From Elusimicrobiota bacterium (GTDB lineage Bacteria; Elusimicrobiota; UBA8919), in NCBI GenBank assembly GCA_043802785.1, contig JAZDKR010000052.1, positions 1 through 33,966 of the forward strand: DNA of 33,966 nt, given 5' to 3'. The stretch's first letter is position 1. Every line of letters starts with the position of its first letter. Position numbers and translations under genes: made by a program. The notes under the pieces were generated by a model. It had not been told where the DNA came from and ran no database searches. It worked only from the letters and a program-made list of their open reading frames with translations. Shown here piece after piece: positions 5,533-32,600 of the stretch.

Positions 5533-5594
5533 GGAATCCAGTTCATCGTCGGAAATATACTTTCTGGATTCCCGTTTGGACGGGCATAACAGCC
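5533..5594 (+). repeat. hairpin repeat ggaatccag...ctggattcc followed by cccgtttggacggg
   Basis: Near-identical arms recur at 26735-26770 inside a MITE-like element. Confidence 0.45.
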
Positions 5595-5736
5595 TTGTTA
5601 GACCGGGCTCATATATTATATTGAAAATAAAAATACTCGACAATTTTATCAACATATTTCATTTTTGAATTTAAGCCAGTTTTAGCTGCTCAAATTCATT
5701 TGACATATAACCGCTAATGAAATAAAAAGGAGTTAT

Positions 5737-8481
5737 ATGAAAGAAACATTATGGTATGCTGTTGCAATTAATGAAGTATTAATAATGCTTGAAACAAATT
5801 GCAAAAACGGTTTAACAGACGCAGAAGCTAAAGAAAGATTGGTAAAACATGGTTTTAATGAATTAATGAAAGAAGATAAAGTTTCTCCTTTTAGCATTTT
5901 CATTAATCAGTTTAAAAACATTCTTATTCTAATCCTAATTATTGCAATTGTGCTTTCGGTTCTTGTGGGTGAATATGTTGATGCAGGAATTATTGCAGTT
6001 ATTGTGTTTTTTGTAGCGATATTAGGGTTTATTCAGGAATATAAAGCGGAACGGGCGCTTGATGCATTAAAAAAGATGCTTTCACCATCTATAACGGTAA
6101 AAAGAAACGGAAAAGAAAGCGAAGTTTTATCCAAAGAACTTGTTCCGGGCGATATTTTAGTACTTGAAGCAGGCGACAAAATTCCTGCAGATGCGAGGCT
6201 TATTGAAAACCACTCCTTAAAGTGCGACGAAGCTTCTTTAACAGGAGAATCTTTTCCTGTTTCAAAAGATATAAAGCCATTGCCTGATGGAACAACGGTA
6301 AATGACAGAAAAAACACGCTTTTTACAGGAACAGCAATCACATATGGCAGGGGTTTGGCTGTTGTTACAGATACAGGGATGAATACTGAATTTGGCAAGA
6401 TAGCTAAAGAAGTTACTTCAATTAAGACTGAAAAAACCCCTCTTGAAAAAAGGACTGATGAGATAGGCAAGTGGTTAAGTATATCTTCTTTATCTATATG
6501 TCTGCTTGTGATAATAGTCAGCATTATCAGGGAGTATTTAGGAGGAACTGTTAATGTAGGATTTATAGTAAAGATAACAATGTTTGGAGTAGCTCTTGCG
6601 GTAGCGGCAGTACCGGAGGCCTTGGCGGCTATTGTTACAGGTGCGCTTGCTATAGGTATGCATCAGATGGCAAAGAGAAATGCATTGATAAGAAAAATGC
6701 CTGCTGTTGAAACACTGGGGTGTACAACAGTTATTTGTTCTGATAAAACAGGAACGCTGACAAAAGGCGAAATGACTATTCGTAAAATGTTTGTTTTAAA
6801 CAAGATGATAGAAGTCAGCGGTACGGGATATTCTCCTGTTGGTGAGATTAAGGGGATTAGTAATGAAGCAGGCAGTGATGTCGAATTATTGCTTAAATCC
6901 GGTATTTTGTGCAATGATTCCGAGCTTTATGAAAAAGACGGGAAGTGGTGTGTTAAAGGTGATTCTACTGAAGGCGCACTTTTGGTGGCTGCATCAAAAC
7001 ATGGAATGAATATTTACGAAATTAAAAAAGCCAATGAGAGAGTAGGTGAGCTTCCTTTTAGTTCAGAAAGAAAAATGATGACCACTATTCATAATATGAA
7101 AGAAGGGAATAAACTTGCTTTTATCAAAGGAGCTCCGGAGGTTGTTTTAGAAAGATGTTCAAAAATATTTGATAACAATAAGATAAGAAATATTACAAAA
7201 AACGATGTTGCTGCTATTTCCGTGATAAATGATGAGATGGCAAAAAATGCGTTAAGGGTATTAGCGTTAAGTTATAAAGATATTTCCGGCAGCAATGAAT
7301 ATGAAGAAAACAAAATTGAAAATGATATGGTGTTTCTCGGACTGGTCGGCATGATGGATCCGCCAAGAGAAGAGGTGATAGAAGCTACCAGGGTATGCAA
7401 ACAAATTCATATTAAACCTGTGATGATAACAGGCGACCATAAACTTACTGCTGTTGCAGTAGCAAAAGAAATAGGTTTTTATAATGATGGTGATATGATA
7501 TTGACAGGAGAGGAATTAGATAAGTATTCGGATGAAGAATTCGAAAAAATAGTTCATAAGGTATCTGTTTATGCCAGAGTATCTCCGACTAATAAACTAA
7601 AAATAGTTACTGCTTGGAAAAAAAGGGGCGAAGTTGTTGCAATGACCGGAGACGGTGTCAACGATGCACCTGCGTTAAAACATGCGGACATTGGTATTGC
7701 AATGGGTATAACCGGTACCGAAGTAACAAAAGAAGCCGCAGATATGGTTTTAACCGATGATAATTTTGCTACTATTATAAAAGCCATTGAGTTGGGAAGA
7801 TGGATATATGATAATATAAAGAAATATCTCGCCTTTCTTTTGCAATGTAACATTGTAGAAGTAGTTGTTATTGGAGGGGTAGTCATTATTTTAGGTCCTG
7901 AATATTTGCCGCTCCTGCCCGCAGCTATATTGTATCTAAACTTAGCCACTGATGGGCTTCCTGCACTTGCCTTGGGGATAGCACCTCCTGACCCCGATAT
8001 CATGCAAAAACCACCTAGAAATCCGAAAGAAAGTGTCTTCTCGTTGGATGTGAGTTCCTTCCTTGTAAGGGCAATTATCATTGAGGTCCCTTTCTTTTTC
8101 TTCATCTTCTTTCACGACCTTGGTGACATAACTCACGCCAGAACAGAGATGTTTTTCTTGTTTATAATCATAGAGCTTGTTGTTGCCCTGAACTGCCGTT
8201 CTCTCACACACAGTATCTTTAAGGCACCGCCGCATAAATGGCTTATCATAGCTGTTATTTGGGAGATTATATTAATTGCTGTACTAATTCAGATTCCAGC
8301 AGTATGTAATGCCTTTGGAATAAGTAAACCATCAATATCTGATATTGGAACAATATTAGGTTTTGGAATTGTTGTATTCGTTCTAATGGAAGTGACAAAA
8401 GCTATTTTGAGAAATAAAATAAGTTTTGATACAAAGAAAGGAGAATTACAAAATGGAAAGAAAAACGGGTATCTTAAATGA
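5737..8481 (+). CDS. P-type ATPase, type IIA/IIB (Ca2+/Mg2+-transporting)
   Basis: Motifs TGES, DKTGTLT, KGAPE, MITGD and GDGVNDAPAL. RBS aaaaggag present. Confidence 0.9.
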   Translation: MKETLWYAVAINEVLIMLETNCKNGLTDAEAKERLVKHGFNELMKEDKVSPFSIFINQFKNILILILIIAIVLSVLVGEYVDAGIIAVIVFFVAILGFIQEYKAERALDALKKMLSPSITVKRNGKESEVLSKELVPGDILVLEAGDKIPADARLIENHSLKCDEASLTGESFPVSKDIKPLPDGTTVNDRKNTLFTGTAITYGRGLAVVTDTGMNTEFGKIAKEVTSIKTEKTPLEKRTDEIGKWLSISSLSICLLVIIVSIIREYLGGTVNVGFIVKITMFGVALAVAAVPEALAAIVTGALAIGMHQMAKRNALIRKMPAVETLGCTTVICSDKTGTLTKGEMTIRKMFVLNKMIEVSGTGYSPVGEIKGISNEAGSDVELLLKSGILCNDSELYEKDGKWCVKGDSTEGALLVAASKHGMNIYEIKKANERVGELPFSSERKMMTTIHNMKEGNKLAFIKGAPEVVLERCSKIFDNNKIRNITKNDVAAISVINDEMAKNALRVLALSYKDISGSNEYEENKIENDMVFLGLVGMMDPPREEVIEATRVCKQIHIKPVMITGDHKLTAVAVAKEIGFYNDGDMILTGEELDKYSDEEFEKIVHKVSVYARVSPTNKLKIVTAWKKRGEVVAMTGDGVNDAPALKHADIGIAMGITGTEVTKEAADMVLTDDNFATIIKAIELGRWIYDNIKKYLAFLLQCNIVEVVVIGGVVIILGPEYLPLLPAAILYLNLATDGLPALALGIAPPDPDIMQKPPRNPKESVFSLDVSSFLVRAIIIEVPFFFFIFFHDLGDITHARTEMFFLFIIIELVVALNCRSLTHSIFKAPPHKWLIIAVIWEIILIAVLIQIPAVCNAFGISKPSISDIGTILGFGIVVFVLMEVTKAILRNKISFDTKKGELQNGKKNGYLK

Positions 8482-10887: not shown

Positions 10888-11066
10888 GCCCCGCCTTGGC
10901 GGGGTCATTGCGAGGGCAAAGCCCGAAGCAATCTCGGTTTTAATCCGCCTCTAGGCGGAGGATTGCCACGGTCGCCTGTGGCGAACCTTGCCTTTGGCGG
11001 GGCGAAGTCTGACGACTCGATCCGCAGCGAGTCGGGCTTTCATAATAAGAATAAACCCGAAGGGTT
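10888..11066 (+). mobile_element. composite MITE-like/REP-like repeat block (left TIR GTCATTGCGAGG at 10904, gaagcaatctc and gattgccacgg boxes, several perfect hairpins)
   Basis: Shares sequence boxes with the elements at 15282 and 27802. Hairpins include ccgcc-tcta-ggcgg, cgactcg...cgagtcg and aaccc-gaa-gggtt. Confidence 0.5.
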
Positions 11067-11419
11067 GACATTATTATAGAAAGGAAACAAGCAATACAAT
11101 AAAATGCCCCGAGTAGGTTCGCCAGAGGTGAAGAAAAAGCGGGAAAGAAGTGAAATTTGGGCCGAAGGTGACAGTAAGTTTAGTGGACAAGTATTTATTT
11201 TTGGATAAGTTTTCAAGCGATGAATTTATCAACAGTCCGCCATATGCGGACAAGAATCTAACAAAAACAGAGCCAAGTAGGTTTTCAACAAGTTATCAAC
11301 AAATAAAAAGAAAAAGGCAACATACTAAACGAGATATTAACATAAAAATATCAAAAAAATAATTTTTCAGCAGACCCGAATTATTTTTTGATCGTTCCGC
11401 GATTAAAAAGGTGAATAAA

Positions 11420-14669: not shown

Positions 14670-14926
14670 GATATAATAGAAACTATAACCCCGAAGGGGT
14701 GGAATTATTATAGCAACAGGTAACAGGTAACAAACCACAACCCCGAACCGAGCAGATTCACCGCAGGTGAAGGGGTGAAATTATTATAGGGGTGGAAATA
14801 ATGTCACCCCGTCGGGGTTTAGTTGTGATTGTTTAACAAGATCTATAATAATATCATCCCTTCGGGATTTAATGTCAAGGGATTTAAGGGACATGACACG
14901 ATCGAAGCGAATAGGAGGAAAACCTG
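14670..14926 (+). repeat. 257-bp intercistronic block of degenerate direct repeats with CCCC-N-GGGG hairpins
   Basis: The ggggtgRaattattatag box occurs three times; hairpins include ccccgaagggg, accccgtcggggt and atcccttcgggat (UUCG-type loop). Confidence 0.5.
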
Positions 14927-15262: not shown

Positions 15263-15281
15263 CCACAGATTACACAGATTT

Positions 15282-15368
15282 GTCATTGCGAGGAGTCCCG
15301 CTGCAAGCGGGACGACGAAGCAATCTCAAAGAATGGGATTGCCACGGGACTTCGTCCCTCGCAATGAC
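15282..15368 (+). mobile_element. complete MITE-like element, 87 bp, TIRs GTCATTGCGAGG / CCTCGCAATGAC
   Basis: Perfect terminal inverted repeats; an internal hairpin cccgct-gcaa-gcggg; cgaagcaatctc and gattgccacggg boxes shared with other copies. Confidence 0.7.
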
Positions 15369-15382
15369 ATTTTGTAAAACTT

Positions 15383-19813: not shown

Positions 19814-19888
19814 CAGATTGCTTCGGCGGAGTTTATTCTGCTTAAAGCGGAACCTCGCAACGACAAGTGGGGAACATTTCTCACAATG
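19814..19888 (+). mobile_element. degenerate, inverted MITE remnant (gagattgcttcg ... cctcgcaacgac ... cacaatgac)
   Basis: Reverse complement of the cgaagcaatctc box and TIR-like ends. Confidence 0.35.
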
Positions 19889-19900
19889 ACATCTTTAAGG

Positions 19901-19944
19901 CAATAATACAAAATGACTGGGTTGGTGACGGTCGTTTTTTTATT
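19901..19944 (+). repeat. left 44-bp direct repeat (caataatacaaaatgactgggttggtgacggtcgtttttttatt)
   Basis: 42 of 44 positions identical to 20725-20768. Each copy is preceded by a cRcaatgaca MITE end and ends in a T-run. Confidence 0.6.
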
Positions 19945-20039
19945 CGAAAAATACTTGACAAATTTTATAAAGTATGTTATCTTTATAGTAAAGAAGTAAA
20001 GAAGTAAAAAAGTAAGGAATTTGGAAAAGGAGGTTGTCC

Positions 20040-20327
20040 ATGCAAAAGATTATTATGGCTCATATGAGTTCTAAAGCGCAGGTCACTGTCCCTAAGGAAG
20101 CGAGACAGATTCTTGGAATAGGACAGTGTAACATTCCTATTGGCTTCATTGTTGAACCCGAAACGCATACCGTTAAACTTACCAGAGTTAATGTCACATC
20201 TGCAGATGAAGATTTCACAGAAGAAGAATATAAAAAACTTCGTAAACTCGCTAAAAAACCGGGTGGGAAAATTTTTACAACTGCCGCCGCAGTTATTAAA
20301 TATCATAAAAAACTCACTAAAAGTTAA
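20040..20327 (+). CDS. AbrB/MazE/SpoVT-type antitoxin
   Basis: ...SSKAQVTVPKEARQILGI... swapped-hairpin motif. RBS aaggagg present. Its TAA overlaps the next ATG, giving a TAATG junction. Confidence 0.55.
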   Translation: MQKIIMAHMSSKAQVTVPKEARQILGIGQCNIPIGFIVEPETHTVKLTRVNVTSADEDFTEEEYKKLRKLAKKPGGKIFTTAAAVIKYHKKLTKS

Positions 20328-20602
20328 TGAAATATTTATTTAGGCCCCGTTATATTCGCAGCATTAAAAAACTTGATAAAAGCCGAGCAGCAAATGTTCA
20401 GAAGACATTTGAATCGCTCGTTAGATTTTTCCAAACAGGTGAAAAACCATTTGGACTCGGGCTCAAGCAATTACGACGTGATATATGGGAAGTTCGTGCC
20501 GGATTACTTGACCGCATAATTTTTCGTCGCACAAAAAATACAGTTGAATTCATTATTGCAGGAACACATAATGAAATCAAAAGATACTTAAATTCTTTGT
20601 AA
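20327..20602 (+). CDS. RelE/ParE-superfamily toxin
   Basis: 91 aa with ...GLKQLRRDIWEVRAGLLDRIIFRR...FIIAGTHNEIKRYL, the RelE/ParE-like pattern. Translationally coupled to the antitoxin. Confidence 0.55.
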   Translation: MKYLFRPRYIRSIKKLDKSRAANVQKTFESLVRFFQTGEKPFGLGLKQLRRDIWEVRAGLLDRIIFRRTKNTVEFIIAGTHNEIKRYLNSL

Positions 20603-20654
20603 AATAATGTGAATAGGACAGAGATTGCTACAGTCGATCCCCGATTAAAAATTT

Positions 20655-20708
20655 CCCGAGTAGGTTCGCCTGGGGCGAAGGGGACAAGTTTATCGGCTTC
20701 GCAATGAC
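20655..20708 (+). mobile_element. MITE remnant: GTAG-ttcgcc-tggg-gcgaa hairpin plus right TIR TTCGCAATGAC
   Basis: Same boxes as the other family members. Confidence 0.4.
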
Positions 20709-20724
20709 AGGCAAAGATAAATTA

Positions 20725-20768
20725 CAATAATACAAAATGGCTGGGTTGGTGACGGTCATTTTTTTATT
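20725..20768 (+). repeat. right 44-bp direct repeat
   Basis: Copy of 19901-19944. The pair brackets the toxin-antitoxin module. Confidence 0.6.
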
Positions 20769-23539: not shown

Positions 23540-23550
23540 GGACTGTAAAT

Positions 23551-23730
23551 TTGTAGTTGCTCAATTTATTGAGCGCCTTTAGTAGGTTTGTAGTTGCTCA
23601 ATTTATTGAGCGCCTTTAGTGGGTTTGTAGTTGCTCAATTTATTGAGCGCCTTTAGTGGGTTTGTAGTTGCTCAATTTATTGAGCGCCTTTAGTAGGTTT
23701 GTAGTTGCTCAATTTATTGAGCGCCTTTAT
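23551..23730 (+). repeat. tandem array of 5 x 37-bp REP-like units (ttgtagttgctcaatttattgagcgcctttagtRggt)
   Basis: Exact period of 37 bp. Each unit carries GTAGTTGC plus the hairpin gctcaa-ttta-ttgagc. No spacers, so it is not a CRISPR array. It ends 33 nt before the ATG at 23764. Confidence 0.8.
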
Positions 23731-23763
23731 GCCAGATAAATCGGGCAACCACTGTGACCTAAA

Positions 23764-25881
23764 ATGGATTGGACAAAATTTGAATTAAAACCAAAAGAAG
23801 AAATTATTGCTCTCCTGCAAGGGGTCAATAATATCTTTGTTATCAGTTGCAAAAAATGTTTTAAGGAACTTAATCCTTCGGATGACATTACCGGTTCTGA
23901 TGAATGTCCTGCGGTTTCCAAAATTGTTGAGGAGGCGAATAAAAAAATTGTTGGTTGCATTGATGTAGATTTTCTTTGCAATAAATTATTAACAGAAAAA
24001 CTTATCCCGAAAGATTTTCAATCGGCAGAAGTTATATGTGTTATTTCCTGTGGAATAGGTGTTCAAACCGTTGCAAATTTAATTAAAGATAAGCCGGTGT
24101 ATTGCCTGACAAATTCCGTATTTAAGACGGGACATAGCGGTGAGCACGGAATGGCTTTGGCTGAAGAAAGGTGCGGGGCCTGTGGGGATTGCGTATTAGA
24201 TATTACCGAGGGAATATGTCCTGTAACTAATTGTGCCAAGCAATTACGCAATGGTTCCTGCGGCGGCGCAAAAAATGGTAAATGCGAGGTAAAAAATTCA
24301 GATGGTAGCCAGCGTGACTGTGCTTGGGAAAAAATATACAAACGCTTGAATGCAGTAGTATCGGGGTCTCCTCGCTTGAATGCACGAGAAAAAACAATCG
24401 CGGGAGAACAATCCGTTGAAATTAAGGACCATTCCAAACCGGATTTTGATACAATAAATTCTTGTAGTATTGATATTCGCAATAAACGACAGCAGAGTTT
24501 TTATGGTGGTCTTTATCCAAAAGAGAATAAAAAACAAACTGAAAATAAACCAATTCAACCTTTTCCCGAACCCAAATTTCTAATTATTCCACTATCACAA
24601 CACATCGGCAAAATTTGTGAACCGCTCGTGAAAGTTGGCGATAGAGTAAAAGTTGGACAGAAAATCGGCGATGTATCATCCGAATTTTTGGGTGTACCTG
24701 TCCATTCCAGTGTGAGTGGAAAAGTCATCGAGATTGAACTTAGAAACCATCCGTTAAGTATTGAAAAAGTTCTGGCAATAACCATTGAGTCAGATGGTAA
24801 AAATGAAGTTCAAAAAAGCGAAACATTATGTATTGATGAAAATTGGCAACCCGAGCAGGCGATTAAAATGATTCGCGAGGCAGGAATTGTGGGATTAGGT
24901 GGCGCACAATTTCCTACTTACGCAAAACTGTGTCCACCGAAAAATAAACCGATAGATACTGTTATCCTTAACGGTGCTGAATGTGAACCATATTTGACTG
25001 CGGATTATCGTGTTATGCTGGAAAAGCCGGAAGAATTATTAGCAGGTTTGCGTGCGATAATGAAAATCTTAAATGTTGAAAATGGTGTTATTGCGATTGA
25101 AGATAATAAAGAAGACGCGATAGAAAGGTTAAATAATGTCATTGCGAGTCGCGAAGCAACGAAGCAATCTCAAACAAATAAAATCAAAGTTGTAGAACTC
25201 AAAACAAAATATCCGCAGGGTTCGGAACGGATGCTAATCAAAAAAATCTTAAATAGAGATGTCCCGCTTGGAGGATTGCCCTACGATGTCGGCGTAATAG
25301 TGAACAATGTAAGCACGGCGGTAGCGGTCTACGAAGCATTATATAAAGGCATATCTTTGATAAAGCGAGTAATTACCGTCACGGGCGATAACTGTGTCCG
25401 ACCTGGTAATTACGAGATAAAAATCGGTACACTATTTCAGGATATCATGGAGTATTGTTTTTCTCTTCCCTACCCCTTCACCTGCGGTGAACCTACTTGG
25501 CTATCCCCTACCCCCTATTCACTAAAGATGGGCGGTCCGATGATGGGTATATTACAGAATAATCTTGATGTTCCGGTAATAAAAGGAACTACGGGAATTT
25601 TGGTGTCTGCCAAACCAGACATACAATCTGATTTATCAAGAAGTTGTATCAAATGCGGTCGTTGTGTAGATGCCTGTCCGATGGAATTGCTCCCTTTATA
25701 CTATGCTTTTTATGTTGACCAAGTAGGTTCGCCAGTGGCGAAAAAACAGCAGTGGCAAGAAACAAAACAGTTAGGAGTTATGAACTGTATAGAGTGCGGA
25801 TGTTGTGATGATGTATGCCCCGCAAAAAGGTCAATAGTTGGTGCTGTTAAAATAGCAAAAAAGGCAGTTCATAGTTCATAG
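23764..25881 (+). CDS. RnfC-like NADH-binding FeS subunit of methylene-THF reductase with an N-terminal MetV-like (MTHFR C-terminal-type) zinc-ribbon domain
   Basis: N-terminal ...CGACGDC...CP...CGGAKNGKCEV..., paralogous to the metV gene at 26025. Central RnfC/NuoF-like core (GLGGAQFPT..., LNGAECEPY...). Two C-terminal CxxCxxCxxxCP ferredoxin motifs. Confidence 0.8.
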   Translation: MDWTKFELKPKEEIIALLQGVNNIFVISCKKCFKELNPSDDITGSDECPAVSKIVEEANKKIVGCIDVDFLCNKLLTEKLIPKDFQSAEVICVISCGIGVQTVANLIKDKPVYCLTNSVFKTGHSGEHGMALAEERCGACGDCVLDITEGICPVTNCAKQLRNGSCGGAKNGKCEVKNSDGSQRDCAWEKIYKRLNAVVSGSPRLNAREKTIAGEQSVEIKDHSKPDFDTINSCSIDIRNKRQQSFYGGLYPKENKKQTENKPIQPFPEPKFLIIPLSQHIGKICEPLVKVGDRVKVGQKIGDVSSEFLGVPVHSSVSGKVIEIELRNHPLSIEKVLAITIESDGKNEVQKSETLCIDENWQPEQAIKMIREAGIVGLGGAQFPTYAKLCPPKNKPIDTVILNGAECEPYLTADYRVMLEKPEELLAGLRAIMKILNVENGVIAIEDNKEDAIERLNNVIASREATKQSQTNKIKVVELKTKYPQGSERMLIKKILNRDVPLGGLPYDVGVIVNNVSTAVAVYEALYKGISLIKRVITVTGDNCVRPGNYEIKIGTLFQDIMEYCFSLPYPFTCGEPTWLSPTPYSLKMGGPMMGILQNNLDVPVIKGTTGILVSAKPDIQSDLSRSCIKCGRCVDACPMELLPLYYAFYVDQVGSPVAKKQQWQETKQLGVMNCIECGCCDDVCPAKRSIVGAVKIAKKAVHSS

Positions 25882-25943
25882 TTCATAGTTCGTAGTAGAG
25901 GCGGATGACGGATAACGAATAACAGATTTTGATTTTATTAGTT

Positions 25944-25965
25944 GTAGTTGCCCAATTTATTGGGC
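25944..25965 (+). repeat. REP-like unit with compensatory stem (GTAGTTGC-gcccaa-ttta-ttgggc)
   Basis: Single copy of the 23551-type unit. The stem differs at two positions on each arm, and pairing is preserved. Confidence 0.55.
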
Positions 25966-26024
25966 GCCGTTGACCTACGCAATACGCAATACGTTTTTAT
26001 CTGTTTTGTATCGCCCTTAAAAAA

Positions 26025-26663
26025 ATGCTAACAATCAAACTTAAACCCGTAGATAATTTGCGGTCATATCTAACAGAAAAAAATCTGATAATACGATGCC
26101 TCGGTTGCCGCGAAGTTCTATTCCCGGAAGAACAGGTGAACAATTTTAAGGAGGGACTGTCCCCGCAGGGGACTGTCCCATATGATATTGACGATATTGC
26201 AACCGATTATTTGTGTAATCCTGACTATACCCAGACGCGGCTGAAATTGTGGCAGAAGAAAATTGACGAAGCGACAAGTATAATAATTTTTTCATGCGGG
26301 GTTGGTGTGCAAGTTGTATCTTCGTTGATGAATAGACATACTTATGCCGGGGCTGATACTGTTCATCTCAATGGTTTTCAGGGTTTAACACCTACAGAAT
26401 ACGATTGTGATCTTTGCGGTGATTGCCTTTTAAATTATACCGGTGGACTTTGTCCTATAACTGCCTGCTCAAAATCGTTGCTTAATGGTTGTTGCGGCGG
26501 TGCCAAAAACGGTAAGTGCGAAGTTAATAAGGAACTTGATTGCGGTTGGGAGAAAATTTATAATCGGCTAAAGGAATCCAGTAAAGTTGTCCGAACTGAC
26601 TCCCTTGGAGAAACAACTTCAACGACTATAAAACTGCGAGATTATTCAAAAACAATACCGTAA
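26025..26663 (+). CDS. metV: MetV-like zinc-ribbon subunit of methylene-THF reductase
   Basis: ...CDLCGDC...CP...CGGAKNGKCEV... core, sitting directly upstream of metF. Confidence 0.7.
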   Translation: MLTIKLKPVDNLRSYLTEKNLIIRCLGCREVLFPEEQVNNFKEGLSPQGTVPYDIDDIATDYLCNPDYTQTRLKLWQKKIDEATSIIIFSCGVGVQVVSSLMNRHTYAGADTVHLNGFQGLTPTEYDCDLCGDCLLNYTGGLCPITACSKSLLNGCCGGAKNGKCEVNKELDCGWEKIYNRLKESSKVVRTDSLGETTSTTIKLRDYSKTIP

Positions 26664-27801: not shown

Positions 27802-27905
27802 GTCATTGCGAGCCCCGTCCCGCCTTGGCGGGATCGGGGCGAAGCAATCTCAAAATTACCGATGGAAAAGAGAGATTGCCACCCCGCCATTGAATCAGTG
27901 GCGGG
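27802..27905 (+). mobile_element. complete MITE-like element, 104 bp, TIRs GTCATTGCGAG / TCGCAATGAC
   Basis: Perfect TIRs. Carries the hairpin cccgcc-ttg-gcggg and the cgaagcaatctc and gagattgccac boxes. Confidence 0.7.
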
Positions 27906-27985
27906 TCGCAATGACAAATTAGTTCAATAGCCAAACCGTTACCGAAATTGTGAAGTATTACAAGGTTTTTTTCCAGTATTAACGT

Positions 27986-29542: not shown

Positions 29543-30313
29543 ATGCAAATGTCAGTTAAATTCACGAGTCGGCAAAAAATAGTAAGTTTATTTGTCGTTT
29601 GTGGGATTATACTTCTTTTTGTGGGGTTGGTGTCAATTGGCCGTGGAAAGAAATTTTTTAGCAGAAAAAATTATTATTTTACCACTTTTAAGTCCGGTGA
29701 GGGGCTTCAAAAAGGTATGGTGGTTTATGTGAATGGGTTCCCGATAGGTATTCTGGAAAACATGGTGCTTGACTATAAAAATAATGTGATTTTGAAAATC
29801 GGGATTTATGAAGAACATTGGAAAAGGATAAAAGAGGGCTCAATCGTTAGGTTGATATCACCGCTAATCGGCTCAAAAACGCTTGAAATAATTCCCGGCG
29901 AATTCAATGCCCCGCTATTATCAAATTTCAGCAGTATTGTATCTTGTGATTCCGAAGAAGGCAGAAAGATATTATATGCACGGCAAAATGAAATTACAAC
30001 CTCGCCTGTTGACACGATAATAAGAAACACTTCGGAAATAATGAGAAAAATAAACGACCCACAGGGACCATTTTTTGCGAATCTTGAAAATTTCAAAGTA
30101 ATAAGCAAGAATGTCGGAAAAATTAGCGATAAAATTATGAATAACCAGGACAAAATAGACAATATATTTAAACATATGGAAGAGTCAACGGCGAATATGG
30201 AAGTAATTTCAAAATCAATAATGAATTCGCCTTATTTTGAAAAGAAGGAAACCAAGTCGAAAAAATCGTCAATAAATCTAAACGAATCGTACAGTCCGTA
30301 CAATACGAAATGA
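29543..30313 (+). CDS. mlaD: MCE/MlaD-like substrate-binding protein
   Basis: N-terminal TM helix followed by an MCE core (...VYVNGFPIGILENM...). Confidence 0.7.
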   Translation: MQMSVKFTSRQKIVSLFVVCGIILLFVGLVSIGRGKKFFSRKNYYFTTFKSGEGLQKGMVVYVNGFPIGILENMVLDYKNNVILKIGIYEEHWKRIKEGSIVRLISPLIGSKTLEIIPGEFNAPLLSNFSSIVSCDSEEGRKILYARQNEITTSPVDTIIRNTSEIMRKINDPQGPFFANLENFKVISKNVGKISDKIMNNQDKIDNIFKHMEESTANMEVISKSIMNSPYFEKKETKSKKSSINLNESYSPYNTK

Positions 30314-30444
30314 AAGAGGCAGGTAGAAAGGTAGGGCAACCCTTTAGGGTTGCTTTTGTAGTGCGACGATTTATCGTCGCTTTTGGCGAGGATAAGGACT
30401 TATACTACTTTTTCCGTCTCCCGTTTACTGTTTCCCGTGACTAA

Positions 30445-32333: not shown

Positions 32334-32351
32334 TACAAATGCATTATGTAA

Positions 32352-32377
32352 TGCCCCGATTTATCGGGGCTTTTTTT
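32352..32377 (+). terminator. intrinsic terminator gccccgatttatcggggc plus T8
   Basis: Perfect 7-bp GC-rich stem, a 4-nt loop, and a run of Ts. Confidence 0.65.
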
Positions 32378-32450: not shown

Positions 32451-32600
32451 TGGTGTCACCCTGAATCCGCCGAGGCGGATGAAGGGTCTGCTTGTTCGTC
32501 GGAAGACTGGATTCTGCGTCCCGCTATGGTGGAACGCAGCAATCTCAGTTTTATTTCAATGTTGTGATTGCCACGGCGATTTTATCGCCTCGCAATGACC
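32451..32600 (+). mobile_element. MITE-like element (right half intact: cagcaatctca, gattgccacgg, TIR CCTCGCAATGAC) inside the 5' leader
   Basis: Same boxes as the other family members. The left part has diverged but keeps the hairpin accct-tga-atccgcc-gag-ggcggat-gaa-gggt. Confidence 0.5.

Follow-up and report, generated by a model that had tools for sequence, protein, structure and literature searches.

Our analysis of a 33,966-nucleotide (nt) contig from an Elusimicrobiota metagenome-assembled genome (MAG; 37.9% G+C), hereafter referred to as the window, revealed that two families of short intergenic repeats also occur in-frame within otherwise intact conserved open reading frames (ORFs), in four instances affecting two ORFs. 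Three of these segments lie in a 705-amino acid (aa) ORF (23764 to 25881, + strand) coding for a MetV-like zinc-ribbon domain fused to an RnfC-like protein with NADH, flavin mononucleotide (FMN), and 2x[4Fe-4S] modules, and the fourth lies in the alpha-glucan phosphorylase ORF (262 to 2043). By comparison with homologous loops and with an empty site in a relative, three of the four segments each amount to an exact gain of the same 24-nt repeat unit. The best reading of these data, and one we regard as very probable, is passive insertion of repetitive extragenic palindromic (REP)-type and MITE (miniature inverted-repeat transposable element)-type sequences into tolerant protein loops. The initial annotation of this DNA had identified two stretches of the RnfC-like ORF, here termed segments 1 and 2, as copies of intergenic repeat families, and both are confirmed at those places, with counts far above those expected from shuffled sequence. 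It had missed a third copy in the same ORF (segment 3; 25477 to 25500, − strand) and the phosphorylase copy at 850 to 873.

The smaller family consists of a 24-nt unit, CCRRGTAGGTTCRCCnnnGGYGAA (core pattern, CCRRGTAGGTTCRCC-N3-GGYGAA), which is present in six copies in the window versus 0.02 expected upon shuffling. Likewise, the 20-mer of segment 2, GTAGGTTCGCCAGTGGCGAA, matched the window four times with up to 3 mismatches (0.01 expected). More specifically, the unit comprises a 9-nt tail (CCRRGTAGG) followed by a 6-bp stem with a 3-nt loop, and all six copies fold as single-stranded DNA into this hairpin (−2.3 to −5.6 kcal/mol; z, −1.9 to −4.0). The hairpin had first been described as TTCGCC-N4-GGCGAA, a pattern for which we found no match; the loop is N3, and one G separates GTAG from the stem. 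GTAG lies one base 5' of the stem in five copies and is replaced by GCAG in the sixth. The stems are TTCGCC/GGCGAA in three units, TTCACC/GGTGAA in two, and a G.T intermediate in one, and this compensatory change from G-C to A-T, together with its intermediate, indicates that hairpin pairing has been kept while the loop varies freely. The units have a G+C content of 58%, against 37.9% for the window. Their size, stem-loop, and tag agree with the definition of GTAG REPs, which are about 20 to 40 bp long.

Three of the six units are intragenic, i.e., segment 2 (CCAAGTAGGTTCGCCAGTGGCGAA; 25719 to 25742, + strand) and segment 3 (CCAAGTAGGTTCACCGCAGGTGAA; zero mismatches to the family pattern) in the MetV–RnfC-like ORF, and the in-frame unit of the phosphorylase ORF (CCAGGTAGGTTCGCCTGCGGCGAA; 850 to 873, + strand). 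The intergenic units, all on the + strand, are located at 11109 to 11132 (a TTCGCC/GGTGAA stem with a G.T pair), at 14748 to 14771 (slightly degenerate, with GCAG for GTAG and a TTCACC/GGTGAA stem), and at 20656 to 20679, where the unit is nested in the right half of a MITE-like element (20621 to 20708). Segment 3 is most closely related to the copy at 14748, being 90% complementary to 14748 to 14776. When every coding sequence of the window was compared with intergenic DNA, repeat matches were confined to the MetV–RnfC-like and glucan phosphorylase ORFs.

We aligned the host protein with 31 and then 119 homologs (49 to 56% identity) and measured loops between conserved anchors. Segment 2, situated between the two 4Fe-4S motifs, begins at the third base of codon 652 and ends at the second base of codon 660, and the corresponding loop is 27 aa long here versus 19 aa in 113 of the 120 sequences. 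Deleting 25719 to 25742 converts YVDQVGSPVAKKQQW into YVEKQQW (homolog consensus, AEKEQW) and leaves the ORF intact. Similarly, segment 3 encodes FTCGEPTW (residues 572 to 579) in a loop of 22 aa, as compared with 14 aa in the closest class of homologs or 10 aa in the other class, and its deletion converts FSLPYPFTCGEPTWLSPTPYSL into FSLPYPLSPTPYSL (versus FSTSYPLSPISYSL in P0005), restoring the homolog pattern YPLSP, again with the ORF intact. These 8-aa gains are absent from all 119 RnfC-like homologs. Consistently, the solved RnfC chains 9eri_C, 7zc6_C, and 8ahx_C display alignment gaps at the same three places as the inserts. The initial annotation had proposed that its two segments were lineage-specific insertions that kept the reading frame, and had named an alignment with RnfC homologs as the check; on that alignment the segments are absent from homologs rather than conserved across taxa, and the loop lengths and structural gaps bear the proposal out. 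The translations it gave (VIASREATKQSQ for segment 1 and the DQVGSPVAK context for segment 2) are correct as well.

The phosphorylase unit encodes PGRFACGE, an 8-aa insert missing from 22 of 22 homologs, some of which are 80% identical. An empty site is visible at the DNA level in the relative L106, which reads ...CTCCGA/GAACTCAAAAAACAAGAAGA where the window reads ...GCAAGA/24 nt/GAACTTAAAAAACAAGAAGA, and excising the unit restores the homolog pattern LELAR/ELKKQE without disrupting the ORF. None of the phosphorylase-gene relatives L106 to L109 carries the 24-nt unit, and L108 has the MITE-like family. Thus, the unit length of 24 nt is fixed by three intragenic 8-codon gains together with the empty site of L106. 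A second lineage-specific insert in the phosphorylase, 22 aa long (GAVRNKSRETDVPSIWGISETV, ~1792 to 1857), is also absent from all 22 aligned homologs; as it matches no other sequence of the window, we did not assign it to the repeat families.

Because 24 nt equals eight codons, the unit never shifts the frame, and a stop (the TAG of GTAG) appears in only one of its six phases. Most insertions into a permissive loop would therefore just add eight residues, and survival needs only a tolerant loop. The three intragenic copies are read in three phases, yielding PGRFACGE, QVGSPVA, and FTCGEPTW; three phases and three peptides fit chance insertion filtered by selection, not a selected peptide. Together, our data show that 24-nt blocks identical to intergenic copies have been added to coding DNA in both orientations and three phases, with no visible target duplication.

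Segment 1 belongs to the larger family, a non-coding element of 87 to 114 nt that is bounded by terminal inverted repeats of 11 nt and contains internal boxes (GCAATCTC/GAGATTGC). The terminal repeat GTCATTGCGAG (11-mer) has 11 matches in the window with at most 1 mismatch (0.27 expected upon shuffling), and the box CGAAGCAATCTC (12-mer) has six (0.12 expected). Segment 1 (25135 to 25174, + strand) is a MITE-like left-arm fragment in which an exact GTCATTGCGAG (25138 to 25148) is followed by an 11-nt spacer and an exact box (25160 to 25171), reading CGAAGCAATCTC(AAA). The matches extend to 14 nt (AATGTCATTGCGAG, shared with an element end at 15358 to 15371) and to 16 nt (ACGAAGCAATCTCAAA, shared with 15315 to 15330), and the same layout of terminal repeat, N11, and box is seen in free-standing half units at 19814 to 19890 and in L108. 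No right half or right terminal repeat follows, so that segment 1 is not a complete element, and by itself the fragment does not fold significantly (z, +1.1). The encoded residues, 459 to 470, read (N)VIASREATKQSQ(T) and lie within the Complex1_51K FMN-binding domain (370 to 524) rather than between the NADH domain and the first ferredoxin motif, where it had originally been placed. The loop is 31 aa long here versus 23 aa in 92 of 120 sequences.

The window carries two complete MITE-like elements, both on the + strand. The first (87 nt; 15282 to 15368) has perfect 11-nt repeats, GTCATTGCGAG...CTCGCAATGAC, and a multi-branched fold (−32.9 kcal/mol; z, −9.3), and the second (114 nt; 27802 to 27915), located just 3' of metF, has repeats matching at 10 of 11 positions (27802/27905) and a fold of −39.3 kcal/mol (z, −8.9). 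Partial copies include one at 10904 to 10990 (+ strand), which retains the left repeat, a 9-nt spacer, the box, and the internal right box without the right terminal repeat; an isolated left half at 19814 to 19890 (− strand); and the right two-thirds of an element at 32535 to 32599 (+ strand). As a short, multi-copy, non-coding element bounded by terminal inverted repeats, the family is MITE-like. A check for target-site duplication found ATTT on both flanks of 15282 to 15368 and nothing comparable at the flanks of 27802 to 27915. Searching the whole window against Rfam at gathering thresholds matched no family, and a literature search using the terminal-repeat sequence returned unrelated primers only. 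The distribution of this family suggests a cross-phylum repeat family without an Rfam entry. The terminal repeat GTCATTGCGAG and internal GCAATC/GATTGC boxes also occur outside this genome, in an 82-nt copy in a Bacteroidales MAG (L093, 7063 to 7144), and the Elusimicrobiota relative L108 (~1959 to 2031, 2663) contains full or half copies, one of them directly 5' of a ribosome-binding site. Within the window, a ACAGATTACACAGATT stretch at 15265 to 15281 adjoins the complete 87-nt MITE-like element.

The gene that carries segments 1 to 3 is intact. Its 705 codons contain zero stops and zero frameshifts, and the homolog alignment shows that it retains every Cys, Gly, and Pro that is invariant in the family. 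Pfam domains were assigned to residues 123 to 198 (PF12225), 245 to 346 (RnfC_N; E-value, 5.6e-33), 370 to 524 (Complex1_51K; 4.4e-53), and 626 to 688 (4Fe-4S dicluster; 4e-8 for the C-terminal 2x[4Fe-4S]). The protein thus has the domain set that defines the RnfC family, i.e., an RnfC_N barrel-sandwich, a Nuo51-type FMN-binding domain, and a C-terminal 2x[4Fe-4S] module. Consistently, the exact host protein (P0001) is annotated as RsxC in an Elusimicrobiota MAG, and it aligns with Acetobacterium woodii RnfC (PDB 9eri_C) at an E-value of 1e-102 and 42% identity. The gene lies in a cluster ordered fhs, metV-rnfC, metV, metF, an order that recurs in another lineage (L105). A. woodii reportedly possesses a MetF-MetV-RnfC2 methylene-tetrahydrofolate (THF) reductase. 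The host protein resembles acetogen RnfC/RnfC2 in its RnfC_N, Complex1_51K, and 2x[4Fe-4S] set and in its fhs/metV/metF neighbors; it differs in having an additional N-terminal MetV-like domain, like Blautia/Marvinbryantia homologs, and three loop inserts specific to its lineage.

We built an AlphaFold2 model on the 120-sequence alignment (mean predicted local distance difference test [pLDDT] score, 79). When superposed on A. woodii RnfC (9eri_C), the RnfC part of the model gave a Foldseek TMt of 0.90 and a root-mean-square deviation of 2.7 Å. Model pLDDT falls below 50 at residues 573 to 582 and 654 to 660, corresponding to inserts 3 and 2, respectively, and insert 1 is predicted to prolong helix 450 to 465 and the loop that follows it (block pLDDT, 68). 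Insert 3 splits the SLBB domain, and the Pfam SLBB match is consequently truncated and falls below threshold; PF10531 is kept in most homologs. The homolog P0023, from another organism (173-kb contig L105), has long extra segments at the loops that harbor segments 1 and 3. These inserts (L105 6990 to 7049 and 7338 to 7409; gene, 5565 to 7787) are in-frame and repeat-derived, and they include GATTACACAGATT units, which are also intergenic at L105 4788 to 4826 and 8531 to 8593, and a CCCTCCCCCAC/GTGGGGAGGG palindrome. To judge from these sequences, the tolerance of the segment 1 and segment 3 loops is independently supported by the different repeat inserts of P0023. A candidate fifth insert, a near-palindrome at 26153 to 26179 in the MetV ORF (26025 to 26663), was rejected, as it confers no length gain relative to 19 MetV homologs. 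This GC-rich sequence, GGGACTGTCCCCGCAGGGGACTGTCCC, encodes EGLSPQGTVP and is similar to hairpins inside the MITE-like elements.

We also searched for the 24-nt unit elsewhere. A scan of a genome collection with the 20-mer yielded at least 94 single matches in unrelated taxa, with no Elusimicrobiota among the matches listed, and this number is near the chance level for 17 specified bases in 596 Gb. A metagenome scan with the 24-mer yielded 10 single matches, among which the low-GC contigs L095, L097, and L098 plausibly represent true relatives of the unit. Four other metagenome contigs (L096, L101, L102, and L104; 55 to 56% G+C) have in common a ~60-nt block, GTCTAGATTTGCTCCRGGTAGGTTCGCCTAAGGCGAACGGCAAAAYTAGRCRTCTGG, that contains the 24-mer pattern. 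Given its different conserved context, we rejected this block as unrelated; it resembles a structured element conserved in a different group of organisms.

The genes of the window, all on the + strand, have ordinary housekeeping functions. They include those for alpha-glucan phosphorylase, DapA/DapB, a P-type ATPase, CbiMNQO, a radical-SAM protein, formate-THF ligase, MetV, MetF, and MlaE/F/D. Several other repeats were noted between them. Five tandem 37-nt units, each with GTAG and the hairpin GCTCAAT-TT-ATTGAGC, occupy the space that separates fhs from the MetV–RnfC gene (23550 to 23734), and one further GTAG-hairpin copy lies just past the MetV–RnfC stop (25942 to 25971). GTAG/GTAA hairpins at 30354 to 30384 and 32344 to 32374, which follow ORFs ending at 30313 and 32333, share an ATTTAT loop context and have different, compensated stems. 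Another dispersed family, which is AAACCCGAAGGGTTGACATTATTATAG-like and includes a CCCGAAGGG hairpin, is present in both orientations (11042 to 11082, 14676 to 14716, 14769 to 14789, 14797 to 14819, and 14842 to 14869) and clusters between cbiM and a PDGLE-domain gene, adjoining a copy of the 24-nt unit. Lastly, two overlapping small ORFs (20034 to 20327 and 20327 to 20602), which have no Pfam match and are antitoxin/toxin-like by eye, are bracketed by 44-nt direct repeats (19901 to 19944 and 20725 to 20768; 95% identical), each preceded by a half MITE-like element (19814 to 19890 and 20621 to 20708). The region from 19814 to 20768 may represent either a small mobile cassette or a junction that was duplicated.

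The genome carries at least two small non-coding repeat families, namely the short REP-type 24-nt unit and the MITE-like element of 87 to 114 nt. If passive insertion is the correct explanation, copies of both would have inserted into coding DNA, and the survivors would be those in tolerant loops. The MetV–RnfC-like gene has two 24-nt units in opposite orientations plus one ~36- to 40-nt fragment of the larger element, and the phosphorylase gene has one unit. The 24-nt unit may have been mobilized by a single-strand tyrosine transposase of the HUH or REP-associated tyrosine transposase (RAYT) type acting on its hairpins; RAYT-type mobilization has been proposed for GTAG REPs (PMC3733652). The inserts themselves would be selectively neutral passengers. 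Several observations weigh against this explanation. The repeat match of segment 1 (~36 to 40 nt) exceeds the net gain of 24 nt over the modal homolog, for which an accompanying deletion or replacement of a few codons, or a shorter ancestral loop, may account. The boundaries of this segment are approximate, as its loop varies among homologs (18 to 37 aa) and the nearest relative is just 56% identical. The 24-nt copies have neither a target-site duplication nor a clear target motif at their flanks, and no transposase or RAYT Pfam match was detected among the window ORFs scanned. Moreover, three intragenic copies out of six in 34 kb is a high share for elements defined as predominantly extragenic, although the sample is small.

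Among the alternatives is the exaptation that the initial annotation had favored, in which repeat-encoded peptides would have been recruited by this FeS flavoprotein, e.g., for contact with MetF/MetV or for cluster tuning. The gene is intact within a conserved fhs-metV/rnfC-metV-metF cluster, so that the protein at least tolerates the inserts; segment 2 is located between the 4Fe-4S motifs, and segment 3 adds a Cys (FTCGEPTW). However, only this one of the 120 sequences has the inserts, which hence show no conservation, and they fall in low-confidence loops for which disorder is predicted. Read in three phases, one unit gives three peptides unrelated to each other, and it is also found in an unrelated enzyme, the phosphorylase; retention of frame by a 24-nt block needs no special explanation, and the literature regards such inserts as neutral (PMC3733652). 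We therefore consider recruitment of the peptides distinctly improbable. Alternatively, the intragenic hairpins might have been kept for a role as nucleic acid, be it in mRNA stability or processing, in translational pausing between domains, or in protein binding at the DNA level. The hairpins are retained with compensatory stem change, REPs have been reported to affect mRNA stability and termination (PMC3733652), and the GTAG-hairpin arrays at 23550 to 23734 and 25942 to 25971 flank the gene. Such a role nevertheless seems improbable, as stem conservation would be equally expected if a mobilizing enzyme recognizes the hairpin, segment 1 lacks a fold, the copies are young and few in number, and the RNA hairpin of the reverse-orientation copy would retain the stem but lose the GTAG tail.

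Technical and trivial explanations fare worse against the same data. The contig comes from a MAG, repeats are a classic source of assembly errors, and the exact host protein P0001 is found on one contig only, all of which could point to misassembly of repeats or to a pseudogene that still reads open. Yet collinear homologous coding sequence continues on both sides of the 24-nt inserts, the inserts are shorter than usual assembly k-mers so that no chimeric join could make them, and the 705 codons have neither stop nor frameshift and keep every invariant residue of the family; artifact or decay is thus very improbable. That the coding segments resemble the repeats by chance or convergence is hardly conceivable: the short length of the unit is all that speaks for it, against 4 to 11 observed matches where shuffling predicts 0.00 to 0.27, and the matches fall precisely on length gains that none of the homologs shares.

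Passive insertion of repeats into genes has well-described counterparts. GTAG- and CGTC-tagged REP superfamilies were defined by Di Nocera et al. (2013, BMC Genomics 14:522; PMC3733652), who found REPs wholly within ORFs of known proteins, sometimes two per gene, and argued that these are probably neutral and lie in linkers or loops. The 24-nt unit shares with GTAG REPs a size of 20 to 40 bp, GTAG beside a GC-rich stem-loop, dispersed copies, and nesting in larger palindromes. As with intragenic GTAG REPs, whole copies lie within enzyme ORFs and add few residues, and two single REPs occur in one gene. In contrast to the cases in that survey, the host is an Elusimicrobiota MAG, outside the genomes covered; the affected genes are metabolic, whereas PMC3733652 emphasizes DNA replication and repair genes; and three inserts from two families pile up in one gene. 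The unit is also very short and codon-compatible, half of the copies seen (3 of 6) are intragenic, and no RAYT gene or REP doublet (REPIN) is visible in 34 kb. Rickettsia palindromic elements (RPEs; Ogata et al. 2000, Science 290:347) are presented in PMC10969869 and PMC3733652 as in-frame selfish DNA in functional genes and are the classic case of it. The likeness to our case lies in selfish palindromic repeats that are in-frame in unrelated, apparently functional genes and compatible with the fold, but elements of the RPE-1 type measure ~100 to 150 bp and add 30 to 50 residues with a conserved peptide, as compared with 24 nt, eight residues, and varied phases here. In-frame fusions created by intragenic MITEs of bacteria (ERIC, BOX, Nezha, and others) have been reviewed (PMC10969869); the larger element resembles bacterial MITEs in its terminal repeats, size, strong fold, and full plus partial copies, and in the in-frame fusion of segment 1. 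It departs from them in that only a ~36- to 40-nt left-arm fragment resides in the gene, target-site duplications are not evident, and there is no known parent insertion sequence.

A bolder proposition, which we consider rather unlikely, is that the 24-nt hairpin represents a REP lineage unusually fit to colonize protein loops, with its length of eight codons and five of six phases open. Were this true, and were half of the copies genome-wide intragenic, the unit would systematically generate 8-residue insertions in loops of the housekeeping enzymes of this Elusimicrobiota lineage. Single REP units, and not REPIN doublets alone, would then be mobile, and the unit would be a miniature counterpart of the Rickettsia palindromic element, about five times shorter.

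As intragenic GTAG repeats and Rickettsia elements have already been described, the present case extends a known phenomenon to Elusimicrobiota and reveals no new mechanism or function. What it provides is a base-pair-resolved example of selfish palindromic repeats remodeling proteins, in which a single Wood–Ljungdahl-associated flavo-iron-sulfur protein has acquired three insertions from repeats, as independent events, and a glucan phosphorylase has acquired one. For the 24-nt units, exact empty sites can be deduced. It cautions annotators that such inserts can defeat domain models, as with the SLBB match lost here, and it marks the loops of RnfC-type proteins that are tolerant of insertion.

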